From sequence record NC_135732.1: DNA of 64,000 nt; one strand, written 5' to 3'. Positions within the stretch are counted from its first letter, which is position 1; each line of letters starts with the position of its first letter. Below the pieces are notes generated by a model that was not told where the DNA came from, did no database searches, and was given only the letters and a program-made list of their open reading frames with translations. Position numbers and translations under genes: made by a program. The DNA is from a phage. Of the stretch, positions 13-45,060 are shown piece after piece.

Positions 13-113
13 GGTGCTAGGTGATGGAATCGAACCACCTATGTATTCAACGACTACCTCGTCTATTTTCAGGATTAAAAATCCTCGCCCTTGCCAAAGG
101 GCTTACCTAGCTC
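13..113 (-). tRNA. tRNA-like element, atypical (about 99 nt); possible degenerate or insert-containing tRNA
   Basis: Minus-strand read: 7-bp acceptor stem GCTAGGT/ACCTAGC, D-arm GCCC-loop-GGGC, canonical T-arm GGTGG-TTCGATT-CCATC. No clean anticodon arm; best guess loop UUUUUAA (anticodon UUU) followed by a ~30-nt extra region. Confidence 0.35.
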
Positions 114-209
114 AGTATGTTGACCATGTTGCTAGTCGGCGATGACGACTGTAACATTTGATAATCCGGTTCTGCTTCCGGCTTTCGCTTAATTACAAGG
201 TCAACAATA

Positions 210-300
210 TGGCTGAGGGTAATGGAATCGAACCATCATCAAGTCATCCTCAACGGGACGGTTTTCAAGACCGCTTGAGCACCATTGCTCCCTACCCTCA
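210..300 (-). tRNA. tRNA-Ser (anticodon UGA), long variable arm, CCA encoded
   Basis: Hand-folded on minus strand: acceptor TGAGGGT/ACCCTCA, anticodon loop CTTGAAA, T-arm GATGG-TTCGATT-CCATT, 3' CCA at 210-212. Confidence 0.75.
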
Positions 301-414
301 TTTATAAACAATACTGATAATGACACTGATTTTCGAGCAGTTAGTGACTAGTATAAACGACGATAAATATCAATGCCATTATCTGTATGATTTATGCATT
401 TAAAACTATAAATT

Positions 415-501
415 TGGTGGGGAGTGGTGGAGTCGAACCACCCGAGTCGCAATGACAATAGATTTACAGTCTACACCGCTACCCCTACGGGATAACTCCC
501 C
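415..501 (-). tRNA. tRNA-Tyr (anticodon GUA), long variable arm, CCA encoded
   Basis: Acceptor GGGGAGT/ACTCCCC, anticodon stem GTAGA/TCTAT with loop CTGTAAA, T-arm GGTGG-TTCGACT-CCACC. Confidence 0.75.
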
Positions 502-505
502 AATT

Positions 506-580
506 TGGCACCCCGTACTGGACTCGAACCAGTGTCAACGGCTTAGAAGGCCGCTGCTTTATCCACTAAGCTAACAGGGC
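506..580 (-). tRNA. tRNA-Arg (anticodon UCU), CCA encoded
   Basis: Acceptor GCCCTGT/ACGGGGT (with G:U pairs), D-stem GCTT/AAGC, anticodon stem GCGGC/GCCGT with loop CTTCTAA, T-arm ACTGG-TTCGAGT-CCAGT. Confidence 0.75.
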
Positions 581-31498: not shown

Positions 31499-31732
31499 AT
31501 GAAAGTTAAATTTCTTACAGATTTAGGGTACCCTTCCTTGGTTGACTGTGTTGGTAAAATTGTGGAAGCAAAACGGCTATCTGCAAACGAGAATGTTGTC
31601 CTGGTTAAAGGGAAGGATTTACTAGCTGCAGGTGCAGAGTCTGGCAGGATCTCTCCTGATTATATGTATTACCTATCTTTAAGTAATCTGCCAGAGCGAG
31701 GCGGTAAAGGCCTTGAAGTTGTGGAGGAGTGA
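31499..31732 (+). CDS. small acidic protein, MKVK-paralog family
   Basis: MKVKFLTDLGYPSLV...KGKDLLAAGA...LEVVEE; paralog of 35155 and 35372 genes. Confidence 0.5.
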   Translation: MKVKFLTDLGYPSLVDCVGKIVEAKRLSANENVVLVKGKDLLAAGAESGRISPDYMYYLSLSNLPERGGKGLEVVEE

Positions 31733-34874: not shown

Positions 34875-35158
34875 TAATGAAAAAGATTAACAGTAGTGAA
34901 GTAGAGTTTAAACTTGTCGGAAAAGGCACTTACTGGGAAGTTCGTCAAAAGGTATATTTGTTCGGTCTTATTCCCTACTGGTCTAAATTCTACTGGGGAG
35001 CTAACGAGTGGGGAAGATACGCCACCAAATCAATGGCACTTGTTGGTATAGCAGAGTACATTGCAGCCCGAGATAGGGTTGGAACCACTTATTACTACAC
35101 TGCTGACGATATTCGTAACAGTGTTTACGTCCCACAACCGCCTGAGGGAGACCGTTGA
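34871..35158 (+). CDS. hypothetical protein
   Basis: 95-aa ORF. Confidence 0.5.
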   Translation: MIMKKINSSEVEFKLVGKGTYWEVRQKVYLFGLIPYWSKFYWGANEWGRYATKSMALVGIAEYIAARDRVGTTYYYTADDIRNSVYVPQPPEGDR

Positions 35159-35382
35159 TGAAAGTTAAAGTTTTAGATTCAAGCTTCTATATTGGTCAGG
35201 AGCCCTTAGTGGGGAAAGTGTTTACCGCTATCCCTAACGAAGATTATCCTGACCTTTTAAAAATAAAAGGTGCAGATCTTATTGCCGCTGGTGCATCTCA
35301 GGACTGCTTTGACAGCCAGTGGACCTACAACTTTGCCCTTGGTGAGGATGTAGAGATAGTGGAGGACGAGAATGAAGGTTAA
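35155..35382 (+). CDS. small acidic protein, MKVK-paralog family
   Basis: MKVKVLDSSFYIGQEPLVGKV...KGADLIAAGA...DVEIVEDENEG. Confidence 0.5.
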   Translation: MMKVKVLDSSFYIGQEPLVGKVFTAIPNEDYPDLLKIKGADLIAAGASQDCFDSQWTYNFALGEDVEIVEDENEG

Positions 35383-35626
35383 AATTCTTGATTCTAACGT
35401 CTACTTGGGACAATCCTTCCTGAAGGGAAAGGTTGTACCTGCGGTGTACTTTGAATGGTTGCCTGACAACGATCCTGTGCGTCAGAAGCATTCCACTGTA
35501 TCACACGGTGTGGTATTTATTCGCGGGTTAGATCTGATCAAAGCGGGTGTCCCCAAGTATTACTTTGGGGAAGAACATTACTATGCCTTCGGTGTAGGAA
35601 CAGACGTAGAGATTGTAGAGCGGTAG
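35372..35626 (+). CDS. small protein, MKVK-paralog family
   Basis: MKVKILDSNVYLGQSFLKGKV...RGLDLIKAGV...DVEIVER. Confidence 0.5.
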   Translation: MKVKILDSNVYLGQSFLKGKVVPAVYFEWLPDNDPVRQKHSTVSHGVVFIRGLDLIKAGVPKYYFGEEHYYAFGVGTDVEIVER

Positions 35627-35627
35627 T

Positions 35628-36026
35628 ATGAAGAACAAGCTTTTCAAAGTAACAATGAAAATTCGCGGAGCTTGGAGCGTAAAGCAAGGGCGTATTCCGG
35701 AATTTGAGAAAGACTTCTACGTAGTCTCCACCTCGGAGGAGGCTGCATGCTGGCAGGCTGGCTATGCCTATGCAAGAACCTGGTACGAAGGATACCAGAC
35801 TGGGGGCTATGACGGAGAAATTATCAGCAAGGGTGTAGAAGAAATTAATGTGTTGACAAGTGAAAAAGTTTTTGTTATAGTGCATCCAGATTCCAGAGTG
35901 AAGCATTACTGGAATGCCAGAACAAAAACTTGGACACCGTTTGCAGATTCTGCTACGCCACTTTTAAACCAGAAAGCTCTTGACTCTGCCCCAAGTTATG
36001 GGGTTGTTGAAGAAAAGCTAAACTGA
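35628..36026 (+). CDS. hypothetical protein
   Basis: 132-aa ORF. Confidence 0.5.
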   Translation: MKNKLFKVTMKIRGAWSVKQGRIPEFEKDFYVVSTSEEAACWQAGYAYARTWYEGYQTGGYDGEIISKGVEEINVLTSEKVFVIVHPDSRVKHYWNARTKTWTPFADSATPLLNQKALDSAPSYGVVEEKLN

Positions 36027-36334: not shown

Positions 36335-36340
36335 AAACTG

Positions 36341-36369
36341 TTGACACAACGCTTCAGATTTAGTATCAT
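36341..36369 (+). promoter_or_regulatory. sigma70-like promoter upstream of the HPF homolog
   Basis: TTGACA, 17-bp spacer, TATCAT. Confidence 0.6.
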
Positions 36370-36418
36370 TGTTTTCAAAGAGAGATAGTTATTCCCTCTT
36401 CCTTAAAAGGAACACGTT

Positions 36419-36739
36419 ATGCAAATTGAAATCACTGGCAACAATGTAGAAATCACAGAAGGTATGGTATCTTTTATTTCCCGCAAAATGTCCAAGCTGG
36501 AGCGTTTACATCCCTCTGTTAACTATGCACGTGTGAGTGTAAAAGTTGAAAATGATCACCAGGAAGTTATGGCGTTCATTTTTGACAATTCTGGAAAAGA
36601 AGTTATTGCCAAGGCTAAAGGCAGTGATGCTTACGAGGCAACTGACCGTATGGTAGATGTTGCAGCACGTCAGCTGGCTAAATGCGGTGGAAAGAAAGGT
36701 AAGGGGAAAGGCAAAGTAAAGATTGACTTTGGAGAATGA
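36419..36739 (+). CDS. hpf: ribosome hibernation promoting factor / RaiA-family protein
   Basis: N-terminus MQIEITGNNVEITEGM almost identical to recalled E. coli HPF (MQLNITGNNVEITEAL); further KLE, VKVE and AARQLAK blocks in register. Confidence 0.8.
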   Translation: MQIEITGNNVEITEGMVSFISRKMSKLERLHPSVNYARVSVKVENDHQEVMAFIFDNSGKEVIAKAKGSDAYEATDRMVDVAARQLAKCGGKKGKGKGKVKIDFGE

Positions 36740-36876
36740 GGTGCTACAATGGGTGTGATTAAGAAATTAGTCCCAAATGTAGAGATTGCATGCTTTGAAA
36801 TTATGTTTGCAATCGCAGTTGTAGTTAATGTGTTAGGTTACGGCTATTAATATCAAATAATTGAGGAGACCTCTAA

Positions 36877-37146
36877 ATGAAAATTAAATTATTCAAAACT
36901 GAGCTGGCAGACAAAAATTGTGGTCTGGTTGAAGGCATGATTGTTGAAGCACAACCAGTGGACTATATGAAGGTGGTTCGTGATGCCCTGGGTGAAGGTT
37001 TTGATCTGATGGAGCCAGCTCTGCGAGAAGATGTTATCGAGATGGCTAAAAAGCACACACCTGAGGGTTTGGTGGTGTTTGTTGCACCTGGTAATGGAGA
37101 AGAGTTGATTGTAACTCCTGATGTGTATGAGATTGTAGAGGAATAA
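36877..37146 (+). CDS. small acidic protein, paralog family (ends YEIVEE)
   Basis: 89-aa ORF starting MKIKLF. Confidence 0.5.
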   Translation: MKIKLFKTELADKNCGLVEGMIVEAQPVDYMKVVRDALGEGFDLMEPALREDVIEMAKKHTPEGLVVFVAPGNGEELIVTPDVYEIVEE

Positions 37147-37505: not shown

Positions 37506-37838
37506 ATGAAAGTACGCTTTATTGGTGAAACAATTCCTGTGCATCTCCGGTCTCCTGAGGATTCTGCAGATCTTGCATCTCAAAAGGCGAGAGGTTATGA
37601 TAAGAAAGTAACCTCAACCGATGTAGTGCTTGAGGCTACTAGTCTACCTGACCCTGCTGCATTCTTTAATCATTATGGGTACTATTTCAGCAATCTGATG
37701 AATATCGGTGAGCTTGTGTTTATTAGTGGTGGAGAAATTGTTAGCAAGCTTGGCGGAGATCCGGATGTCTTTCATGAAACCTGTCCTTTTGCATTTGTGG
37801 TGGGTTCAGATGTGGAAGTTATTGAGGAGGTGCGGTAA
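37506..37838 (+). CDS. small acidic protein, paralog family (ends DVEVIEEVR)
   Basis: Start ATG 37506 (MKVRFIG). Confidence 0.5.
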   Translation: MKVRFIGETIPVHLRSPEDSADLASQKARGYDKKVTSTDVVLEATSLPDPAAFFNHYGYYFSNLMNIGELVFISGGEIVSKLGGDPDVFHETCPFAFVVGSDVEVIEEVR

Positions 37839-38233
37839 TGGTAAGCCTATACCGTGTTGAGTATAGCTCAGATACTGTATACAACGTAAGAAGCAAAGAT
37901 CGCAGCGACAGAGTGCAAGAAATGTACGTTCTTGCCGACAGTCCGTTATCTGCAGCGTTCAAGGCAGGGGCTCTTGCATCTCGTTGGAAATTTGAAGGTG
38001 GATCTTTCTATGAAGAAACCCTTGAAGATTCTGTTGTTATTTCTTCTGTAGAGGTTTCAGATGACTACGAAGGGAAAAAGTTCGTAATGCGGCACCCACA
38101 CAGCAATATTGCGTACTACTGGGATGTTCTGAACAACGAGTGGACCCCAGATCTTCAGAAGGCTACTGTGCTAACACCGTTTTTGGCAGATAAGTTCCCA
38201 CCAGAAGGTAATTTATCTGCACTGTTTCAGTAA
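37838..38233 (+). CDS. hypothetical protein
   Basis: 131-aa ORF. Confidence 0.5.
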   Translation: MVSLYRVEYSSDTVYNVRSKDRSDRVQEMYVLADSPLSAAFKAGALASRWKFEGGSFYEETLEDSVVISSVEVSDDYEGKKFVMRHPHSNIAYYWDVLNNEWTPDLQKATVLTPFLADKFPPEGNLSALFQ

Positions 38234-42233: not shown

Positions 42234-43699
42234 CACACAATTAGCTGCCCGGCTAAAGTGCTGGAAGCGCACCTATAACACATATTTCAACTAAATTTCC
42301 CACCACCACAATCACTTACCTACCACACGTGACTGTTTGCTTGTTTAGTGAGCAGTCATGCCTTGACATTCTTGCCTATCCTGATAAAATTAAGTTCTTC
42401 TCTTTTCTTTTACCGAGTAATTCGGGTTTTCTGTTCTCTTCGGTTTGAAGGGGTATGGAGATACACCTGAGTGAACAGGGTGAACAACCGAACCATTAGC
42501 TATGGCATTAGCATGGCGAAGCGGACGGGTGACGAAAGAGGGGCCGGAGGACACCAGTCACTGCCATATGATATATGGGTGATAACCTGAAGAGTCTGAA
42601 TAAGTGTTTAAGTACCAGTCAGAGGAAAAGGTGAATGGTAGCCGAAGGGGGAGGGGGGGTTTCTTGTATCTTTAATTTGTATATTATGTATACACTTGTA
42701 AACCAATTTCATATGAATCTGTTTACCACACAAAGTGGATTGAGACAAATATTACCTATTAAACTTGAATTATTTATAGAAAATACCACAACACACCTTA
42801 AGTCTTTGATTTTACACATAAATCTTACAGATATTCAACCTCCATATTTAACATACTTGTAACATATCCTATACCACACCTGCCTGATCAATTCCCCCAA
42901 CTACATCCTCTATATTTTCCCTGTCTGTACTACCCCATCCCCGCCGGGAGTCCCGTCATATCTGGCTTTCCAGCAAATATCACACCCACAAATATCATTG
43001 CCTGAAGAGGGTTTCATCCTCTAATACCTGCCTTACCTGAAGAGCGCTTCATACACCACGTAAATTTTTTAATTGACCTGCAATTTTCCCGTCATGACCC
43101 CCTGCCCCGCCGGAGAGGTTGGCTTTTCCCACACAGACCTGAAGAGTCAGCCAGAAATATCTGAACAGGCCCAATTCTACCACGATTTTGACCTGACCTA
43201 CAGGAGTGCTGCCAGGCGGACGAAATGGGAATACTTCTCATTCTTATAATAATTCTCAAATATCGAGGCAGTGAAGCAAATTAATAGGTGAGGCCGTTCA
43301 CATAGTGGCACAACATTTGCAATCTATTTTGTGTGGGGGAATGAGAATACCTATCATTGTGAGAACTGTTATCATTACGGGCAATTTAACATAATACCCA
43401 TTATGCGCACCACTGGCGATACATACAGGGATTGATAACATGAGTTACTGTTTACGCATATAACAATTATATTTATTACTATTTGTGTGGGATATAGTTA
43501 GCAGCCGATAGATTAGATATTGACCTGCGGACTTCTGACCGTCTAGACGTCTAAACGCCCACACAGCAAGAGTTATACATACATCGCTGAATGTAAACAG
43601 GGCCGCAAAAATGCTACCATACCAGTTTGTAAATTTTTCATGCAGCACTTGACAAAGAGGAGAAAAACTTGTCTGACATAATGTGACCTAACTGACACA

Positions 43700-43800
43700 A
43701 CATGACACTTTTACACACCTATTAGTTTACACACTGGATTGTTTACATTCCTGATTGTTCACATGCTAACCATTTACATGATTGACTGTTTACACACCGA
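43700..43800. repeat. Cluster of short direct repeats (iteron-like): TGTTTACA(C) and CATGACA
   Basis: Six or more copies of GTTTACA/TTTACAC within ~100 bp; further copies at ~44216 and ~44259. Confidence 0.7.
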
Positions 43801-43807
43801 TAATCAG

Positions 43808-44060
43808 CCATGCCATTCGTTTGCATGACAATAATTATACATGACAATAATCGCACTGATTATAATTAGCATGACATAATATAAAAGCAGGGCAACTATT
43901 AGCAGATCTATAGTTGCCTTGCTTGTTATGTCATGATTAACTAAATACAAGGCAACTATGATCTGATTAATAGTTTGCAGACAAACTATCACGGGGGTGA
44001 TGGTTACTGCTTTTATATTATGTCGCGACTCCGTCGCGCCATGCCATTCGTTTGCATAGT
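43808..44060. repeat. Composite element: 20-bp direct repeats flanking a 16-bp perfect inverted repeat and nested palindromes
   Basis: GCCATGCCATTCGTTTGCAT at 43808 and 44040; CATAATATAAAAGCAG (43875-43890) with its exact reverse complement at 44007-44022; palindrome GGCAACTAT...ATAGTTGCC at ~43891-43919. Confidence 0.75.
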
Positions 44061-44659
44061 TGCCTTATTGTTACAGATAAAATAATTGTATTGTTAATTA
44101 TTTCTTATCTTTCTATTAGTCATCTAATGATTTCAGTTAATATAGTAACGTACAGTAAACATTAGACGACTAAAGATTTCTCTGCTTATGGTAACCTAAC
44201 GTGACAATTCCAGACTGTTTACGAAAAATGTTGACACCTGGGCCGATTTATGTTATGCAGTTTACACGAATAATTATTTTATGCAGGTATTGACTATTCC
44301 GTTATTCTACGGTTGGAATAAATGCTTAGCAGGCTATAGAATGGCGAGCGTACGTAAATTCTGAGATCTGGCGGCTATAGTTATACTCGATTTTTCACGT
44401 AGAAAACGCTTTTGTAGTTATGTAAGTGTATGACTTATAAGAATTTTTAGTTGTTGACAAGCTATTGAAGATATGCATCAGGTTAAATTTTGTGCAAATG
44501 CTGCATTACGTGCAATTTTGGAAGGAAAAACGTGTAAAAATGGCCCTGCTACCACACAATGAAAAATTATGCAATAGTTATTTTATATGTATGTTTGTAC
44601 AGTGGGGTTAATTGCTGGCTTGTTGATTATTCCATTTGCCAGGCGGGGCCATTTGTGGT

Positions 44660-44700
44660 AGGAAAAGAGGAGACAAAAAGAAAGGGGCTTTAAGCCCCTG
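44660..44700 (-). terminator. terminator for the minus-strand block
   Basis: AGGGGCT-ttaa-AGCCCCT with a T-rich run on the minus strand. Confidence 0.55.
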
Positions 44701-44718
44701 ACCGTGCACCTTGTTGTA

Positions 44719-44931
44719 TTATTTGTTGCTCATCCAGTTTTCCCAAGCTGCCTGATAATCTGCCTCACTACGGCGGATCTCTTCTTGCTCTTCAAGGCGG
44801 ATCTCTTCTTCCAGGTACCCCAAGATGTCAGCCTTTTTGGTCTGGCGTAACATCCAATCATCTTTTTTTACGAGTGAAGATCTTATAAGCTTTCTCGCAA
44901 ACCTCTTTTTTGCTACCTTTCTGGACTTCAA
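44719..44931 (-). CDS. hypothetical protein
   Basis: 70-aa ORF. Confidence 0.4.
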   Translation of the reverse strand: MKSRKVAKKRFARKLIRSSLVKKDDWMLRQTKKADILGYLEEEIRLEEQEEIRRSEADYQAAWENWMSNK

Positions 44932-45060
44932 GAATTCTGTAGGCCATGTACTGAACTAATTTAAGCTGATCCAGACGTTTCATGATGTTTCCTCTTTATG
45001 TGGTTCGTTTTGATTAGTTGATAATACAGCAGTTCGCAGATCAGTCTTTAGCAATTCATG

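Follow-up and report, generated by a model that had tools for sequence, protein, structure and literature searches.

The 106-residue open reading frame at positions 36419..36739 of the window (the whole stretch of phage DNA that was analysed, 64,000 nucleotides of sequence record NC_135732.1) is, with near certainty, a full-length HPF/RaiA-family homologue of rV5-like coliphages. The protein is HPF-like in sequence and RaiA-like in architecture, and it passes neither of the equivalog models for these two factors. Judged from its sequence, its most likely role, which we rate slightly better than even, would be to occupy the HPF/RaiA site of idle host ribosomes in a salt-labile manner, with an effect closer to that of RaiA than to the promotion of 100S particles.

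The existence of the gene is no discovery, and the gene, its family assignment and its promoter were all previously known. It is ORF144/gp139 of phage rV5, has been annotated since the publication of the rV5 genome, and was the subject of a 2019 study that also expressed the protein. Annotations of it appear in over 100 GenBank records, under names that include ‘sigma 54 modulation factor’, ‘ribosome hibernation promoting factor’ and ‘ribosome-associated translation inhibitor RaiA’. What the present analysis adds are the dN/dS values, the conservation of promoter and synteny in a sister lineage, the mapping of ribosome-contact residues, the charge comparison and the equivalog scores.

The original prediction placed the locus at 36341-36739. 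This is accurate: the interval starts exactly at the -35 hexamer and ends exactly with the stop codon. The features are:

36341..36346, + strand: -35 hexamer TTGACA of the hpf promoter (rV5 ‘P144’), invariant in 10/10 relatives including the sister lineage
36364..36369, + strand: -10 hexamer TATCAT, after a 17-nt spacer; TATCAT or TATTAT in Vequintavirus relatives
36407..36412, + strand: Shine-Dalgarno sequence AAGGAA, 6 nt 5' of the ATG, kept in Vequintavirus relatives
36419..36739, + strand: open reading frame of 106 aa, with its ATG at 36419 and a stop codon that ends at 36739
36419..36688, + strand: HPF/RaiA (Ribosomal_S30AE) core, residues 1-90, recognised by Pfam, TIGR00741, phmmer, AF2 and Foldseek
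36689..36736, + strand: basic Gly/Lys-rich tail, residues 91-106, GKKGKGKGKVKIDFGE, lineage-specific and predicted to be disordered
36737..36739, + strand: stop codon TGA, from reading of the sequence

The family assignment draws on the whole domain. Pfam PF02482 (Ribosomal_S30AE) matches residues 3-89 (4.2e-15, 56.7 bits against a gathering cut-off of 23.7), and the HPF/YfiA family model TIGR00741 is also exceeded (56.8 bits against a cut-off of 40.9). BLASTP aligns residues 1-92 with E. coli HPF at 40/92 identities (43%, E=1e-21), which excludes a similarity limited to the N-terminal peptide and bears out the claim that it continues along the protein. The accompanying statement that the first 16 residues are nearly identical to E. 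coli HPF was slightly overstated, with 12/16 matching overall and 10/10 over residues 5-14 (ITGNNVEITE). At the level of individual factors, the protein falls below both cut-offs, with 65.2 bits against 125 for the short-HPF equivalog NF007780 and 22.8 bits against 158 for the RaiA/YfiA equivalog NF007654. Identity to E. coli RaiA is 25%; because of this value and the latter score, we read the RefSeq name ‘ribosome-associated translation inhibitor RaiA’ as a family-level label and not as a statement of orthology. The E. coli HPF and RaiA reference sequences used here were checked against PDB chains.

Structure prediction points the same way. A phmmer search of the PDB finds E. coli HPF as the best match over residues 1-90 (2RQL, 4V8H and 6H4N, about 1e-15 to 4e-15), and RaiA entries appear only at ~0.02. 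The AF2 model, built from an 81-sequence alignment, has a mean pLDDT of 85 (core ~85-96) and a beta-alpha-beta-beta-beta-alpha topology (E2-8, H14-30, E34-43, E48-56, E61-68, H71-90). It lies at an rmsd of 1.1 A from both ribosome-bound E. coli HPF (6h4n_x) and V. cholerae HPF (4hei_A), and the top 35 Foldseek matches in the PDB are all HPF, RaiA or protein Y. In PHROGs, the rV5 clade forms its own family, 12469 (function unknown), and the match to phrog_8990 is weak (1e-07).

The residues that contact the ribosome are retained in part. In a family alignment of 142 sequences, with columns taken as conserved at about 70% or more, the phage protein mostly keeps the conserved positions (G7, T13, K23, K26, L27, R29, V39, E44, G59, A64, D70, Y72, D76, D80, R84, Q85, K88 and K92). 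A structural survey lists K80, R83, K87, K89 and K91 (E. coli numbering) as strictly conserved helix-2 contacts, with additional contacts by K26/Q29, T53/H62 and H55/E60 (bioRxiv 10.1101/2025.10.07.680626). Three of the five basic contacts in helix alpha2 are kept (R83 as phage R84, K87 as K88 and K91 as K92), and two are lost (K80 to V81 and K89 to G90). Helix alpha1 keeps K23, K26 (K26 in both proteins) and R29, the last a basic residue in place of E. coli Q29, and has lost the basic residue at position 17 (R/K17 to V). Among the remaining contacts, T53, H55 and H62 have become F53, F55 and I63, and E60 is kept as E61. The losses are common to both phage lineages. The original prediction had named the loss of conserved ribosome contacts as one ground for its refutation, and the loss is partial: K80, K89 and R/K17 are gone, and R83, K87, K91 and K26 remain.

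The charge of the protein has shifted as well. Its pI is 9.0, compared with 6.5 for E. coli HPF and about 6 for RaiA, and its core carries 12 Lys/Arg residues against 9 in HPF (9-10 in the host factors); beta4 has gained lysines. Together with the lysines of the tail, which adds +4, these may compensate for the lost contacts.

Might the protein have kept its fold, given up ribosome binding and taken on another RNA or protein partner? The loss of three conserved basic positions and the altered beta-sheet contact residues would fit such a change, as would the long isolation of the clade (the nearest cellular representative is 44% identical), the two missed equivalog cut-offs, the separate PHROGs family and the published negative result on ribosome association (PMC6375957). 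However, most family-invariant residues persist, including R83, K87, K91 and K26, the model superimposes on ribosome-bound HPF at 1.1 A, and strong selection acts on exactly these positions across two phage lineages. We regard neofunctionalisation as quite unlikely.

The Lys/Gly-rich C-terminal tail described in the original prediction is present (GGKKGKGKGKVKIDFGE). Helix alpha2 ends at Gly90-Gly91, followed by KKGKGKGKVKIDFGE, and residues 92-101 have AF2 pLDDT values under 50. From residue 89 on (CGGKKGKGKGKVKIDFGE), the tail has a net charge of +4, and no other tail of similar length in the 142 family sequences is as rich in Lys and Gly. The K87 equivalent is followed by 18 residues, compared with 8 in E. 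coli HPF. Tail length varies among isolates through indels of GK units (103-106 aa in total), and in APCEc02 and one metagenomic cluster the tail is frameshifted to ...GRKKGKGERQSKD. The tail of the sister lineage differs, yet is still basic (YSKSKGIDKRTAKWDY). [quoted passage not shown] In comparison with this extension, the phage tail is shorter, basic instead of acidic, unrelated in sequence and predicted to be disordered.

The protein has been put to an experimental test once. Mizuno et al. 2019 listed the HPFs of the rV5 group, placed them among gammaproteobacterial sequences, called HPF conservation high and proposed that a viral HPF may compete with the cellular factor and so prevent ribosome dimerisation (PMC6375957). 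They expressed rV5 HPF from pBAD24 in E. coli NM522, harvested at OD600 = 1 and pelleted ribosomes through 500 mM NH4Cl; the protein was found in the crude extract and was absent from the 70S and 100S fractions, and 100S particles were unchanged (PMC6375957). Of the suggestion that a phage HPF could silence host ribosomes, the family membership holds, and the silencing is at present a conjecture that these data do not support. The negative is not decisive, since, as the authors point out, the experiment used salt-washed ribosomes from cells outside stationary phase; they themselves term the ribosome-association test inconclusive (PMC6375957). The harvest came as exponential growth was ending, a stage with little 100S (PMC6375957). 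Beyond this paper, our literature search on Vequintavirus hpf function, expression timing and transcriptomes returned only a repetition of the HPF annotation for five further rV5-like isolates (PMC6969025).

The supplementary lists of the 2019 study also report on the host factors. RaiA is listed in washed ribosomes from cells that expressed phage bS21 and bL12 and is missing from those of the rV5 HPF expressors, whose crude extract contains RaiA, HPF and RMF (PMC6375957 Supplementary Data 2-5). Since host RaiA survived the wash in other samples, the wash alone may not explain the absence of the phage protein; a 500 mM NH4Cl wash that spares some RaiA implies that any binding by the phage protein is looser than that of RaiA. 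The phage protein may also have displaced RaiA from the ribosomes. This possibility bears on an anti-hibernation reading, in which the protein binds the HPF/RaiA site only for a short time, evicts host RaiA, HPF and RMF, dissociates easily and frees stationary-phase ribosomes for phage mRNAs. The idea was raised in the 2019 study (PMC6375957), weakened binding would be in keeping with the loss of two conserved contact lysines, and the phage protein and RaiA are both absent from the same washed ribosomes, with RaiA found in two other preparations and in the extract. However, the RaiA comparison is a single unquantified MS list with 1-2 RaiA peptides in the positive samples (PMC6375957), which makes the absence only a lead for this reading. 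The phage protein is also more basic than host HPF, contrary to weak RNA binding, and 100S was unchanged, albeit in cells at the end of exponential phase with little 100S. We consider an anti-hibernation decoy unlikely. In a more specific form, a fast-exchanging, HPF-shaped decoy would strip RaiA, HPF and RMF from the ribosome as its Lys/Gly tail invades the RMF/mRNA-exit site. The sole empirical hint for this form is again the absence of host RaiA from ribosomes of phage-HPF expressors (PMC6375957), and we give this form a similarly low probability.

The gene has its own promoter, as had been proposed. The intergenic gap upstream of the open reading frame (36335-36418, 84 nt) holds TTGACA-17-TATCAT, which agrees with consensus at 11/12 positions, has the orientation of the gene and is separated from the ATG by 49 nt, close to the original estimate of 50 bp. 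Its hexamers, its spacing within 16-18 nt, its intergenic location and its gene orientation are those of a sigma-70 promoter. Among ten aligned relatives, the spacer bases vary while TTGACA stays invariant. In the sister lineage, the promoter reads TTGACA-17-AATTAT with an extended-10 TG, so that the 17-nt spacing is the same and the spacer sequence is different. The rV5 RefSeq record, NC_011041, annotates the element as ‘Sigma70-type promoter; P144’, consistent with the count of 33 sigma-70 promoters in the rV5 genome publication (PMC3606486).

The same pattern recurs widely. TTGACA-N17-TANNNT occurs 21 times in the 64,000-nt window, compared with 1.07 expected, and 0/100 shuffles reach 21; the -35/-10 element of hpf thus belongs to a genuine promoter class. 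All 21 copies are oriented along the local coding strand, on the - strand to ~4.2 kb, the + strand at 9.9-41.6 kb and the - strand from 45.7 kb, gene block by gene block. This distribution fits transcription of most of the window by unmodified host sigma-70 polymerase. The hpf promoter is one of about a dozen similar sites within a 14-kb small-gene block. A second promoter-like site (TTGACT-16-TACAAT with TG, 36723..36750, + strand) overlaps the end of hpf, and a strong TTGACA-18-TAAAAT site lies inside the 3' part of hpf in the sister lineage (L005 6233..6262). The promoter-like sites at the 3' end of hpf may be drivers of the downstream small genes. A 5' UTR hairpin that would sequester the Shine-Dalgarno sequence (UUCCUU/AAGGAA) was considered and rejected, as its stability is unexceptional against shuffles (z = -0.57) and it is absent in the sister lineage. 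No Rfam family matched within or near the hpf locus.

A near-consensus host-type promoter suggests early, strong expression, which would suit a host shut-off factor, that is, a strong HPF/RaiA-type inhibitor that stops initiation on host ribosomes early in infection. Members of the HPF/RaiA family do block the A and P sites and translation initiation. However, such a block does not discriminate between mRNAs and would impair phage translation to the same degree, and cultures under continuous arabinose-induced expression reached OD 1 with normal ribosome profiles and with the protein absent from ribosomes (PMC6375957). Global shut-off is therefore very unlikely, given the lack of mRNA selectivity and the tolerance of continuous expression.

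The window belongs to a Vequintavirus, and hpf is a core gene of this group, located in a long block of small genes with many host-type promoters. The 2-kb surroundings are 99.8% identical to those in Escherichia phage naswa and at least 90% identical to 118 phage records. All 117 related phage records encode the protein with at least 93% identity, and tblastn (E<=1e-3) found no homologue in phages outside the rV5 group. Eighteen GenBank MG0656xx ‘Campylobacter phage’ records (host C. jejuni) contain a 97-99% identical region with the same hpf; the C. jejuni host assignment of these records looks doubtful on this basis. Comparison of Vequintavirus alleles gives dN/dS values of 0.03-0.06, at dS values that reach 0.74, which indicates that hpf is functional and under strong purifying selection. 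The same values led us to reject the possibility that hpf is a pseudogene or decaying passenger.

When 1.84 billion cluster representatives were searched exhaustively with HMMER, one further member of the phage clade (P0004) emerged, 64-66% identical. The next match, which is the nearest cellular representative, is 44% identical and enterobacterial-HPF-like. A word-indexed protein search returned the phage clade alone; the cellular relatives appeared only with the exhaustive search. The additional member is encoded on ~125-137 kb phage contigs in the same syntenic slot, downstream of ClpP and in the same small-gene array, in a phage that shares 10-13% of the region with known Vequintaviruses at 81-88% nucleotide identity. 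An IMG/VR scan found 2 loci only. Recent capture from E. coli was rejected, as host HPF is 43% and the nearest cellular cluster representative 44% identical. The synteny and the 64-66% identity of the additional member indicate that capture predates the split between Vequintavirus and the sister lineage. We infer that a gammaproteobacterial host was the probable source, that capture preceded the separation of Vequintavirus from this undescribed sister lineage, and that the C-terminus was probably remodelled later, from a K-x-K-x-K helix end to Gly-Gly and a flexible Lys-rich tail.

So, what does the phage gain from this protein? Under the reading that we favour, a salt-labile occupant of idle ribosomes, host RNA polymerase would transcribe hpf, and the product would bind non-translating ribosomes at the HPF/RaiA site, the A/P-site channel of the 30S subunit, in competition with host HPF and RaiA. 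We put binding at this site at about even. Lacking two conserved contact lysines, the protein would bind less strongly than the host factors and be more easily removed by salt. The tail would project toward the mRNA-exit/RMF site, as is thought for the extension of RaiA, and with the tail in this position 70S monomers would be favoured over 100S dimers of the RMF/HPF type. A RaiA-like rather than HPF-like outcome is a more tentative proposition than binding itself, and we treat it as possible. The benefit to the phage would be control of the pool of idle ribosomes in slow-growing or starved hosts, via protection from RNases or quick re-use. The reading draws on the retained contact residues, on the high pI and basic tail, on the proposed reach of the RaiA extension to the RMF site and on the absence of host RaiA from washed ribosomes of rV5 HPF expressors whose extract contained it (PMC6375957). 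Several observations count against this reading: the replacements R/K17 to V, K80 to V, K89 to G, and T53, H55 and H62 to F, F and I; the failure to reach either equivalog cut-off; a disordered tail unlike that of RaiA in sequence and charge; and the absence of rV5 HPF peptides from 70S and 100S fractions, with 100S unaffected (PMC6375957).

Several neighbouring features deserve mention. Two genes downstream of hpf, an 89-aa open reading frame (36877..37146, + strand) is annotated as ‘sigma 54 modulation factor’ in naswa, nom, APCEc02 and others. It was rejected as a second HPF gene, as it has no Pfam match and no HPF similarity, and the label is an annotation error. The genuine HPF homologue of APCEc02 carries the label ‘hypothetical protein’. 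The label on the 89-aa frame looks like an off-by-one error that then spread by similarity. Two sets of small paralogues flank hpf. One (family A) has four copies at 31499..31732, 35158..35382, 35372..35626 and 37506..37838, with 30-42% identity and often ending in ...VEIVE; the other (family B) has copies of about 131 aa at 35628..36026 and 37838..38233, with 28% identity. Neither has a Pfam match, and their arrangement suggests local duplications within the small-gene block.

Further away, an ORF-poor region of ~2.7 kb (~42300..45000), where + and - strand genes meet, matches the box marked ‘non-coding’ in the rV5 paper (PMC3606486). A perfect inverted repeat of 18 nt (43873-43890 / 44007-44024) lies within it, along with several short repeats, both direct and inverted, and it had no Rfam match. 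A cluster of four tRNA genes (13..580, - strand) comprises Arg-TCT, Tyr-GTA, Ser-TGA and a 99-nt gene (13..111) that ARAGORN left untyped, calling a 4-base anticodon, and that scores 35.5 bits in Rfam, just above the tRNA threshold.

The strict conservation of hpf (dN/dS about 0.05) is found in very commonly isolated E. coli phages, including candidates for therapy and biocontrol. If the protein manipulates ribosome dormancy, this would be relevant to the ways in which lytic phages deal with slow-growing or stationary hosts, and would provide a natural variant for dissecting 70S (RaiA-type) from 100S (HPF-type) outcomes. Should the anti-hibernation reading be true, rV5-like phages could replicate in starved or stationary-phase E. 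coli of the gut.

Comparison with known systems begins with gp139 of rV5 (YP_002003641, ABI79209; Nat Commun 10:752), which is the same gene, 97% identical and with the same neighbours, position and promoter P144. The rV5 protein has a single Asn and 105 aa where the window allele has Asn-Asn at positions 8-9 and 106 aa, and there are three more substitutions; E. coli HPF also has Asn-Asn at these positions, like the window allele. The closest solved relative is E. coli short HPF (YhbH, P0AFX0; PDB 2RQL, 6H4N chain x), with 43% identity and the same fold. The two proteins have the contacts K26, R83, K87 and K91 in common. Unlike E. coli HPF (about 95 aa, with no extension much beyond helix alpha2), the phage protein has lost K80, K89 and R17, has a one-residue insertion in the beta3-beta4 loop and has a GG helix end followed by an 11-residue-longer Lys/Gly tail. 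Short HPFs are characterised by conversion of RMF-induced 90S dimers to 100S; rV5 HPF left 100S without discernible change upon expression, in cells outside stationary phase (PMC6375957). HPF-family genes of other large myoviruses, such as that of Cronobacter phage GAP32 (AFC21633; PHROG 8990), are separate acquisitions. E. coli RaiA (YfiA, protein Y, P0AD49) shares the fold and family at 25% identity and, like the phage protein, extends C-terminally past the length of HPF, but its tail is longer and net acidic, whereas that of the phage is shorter and net basic (+4).
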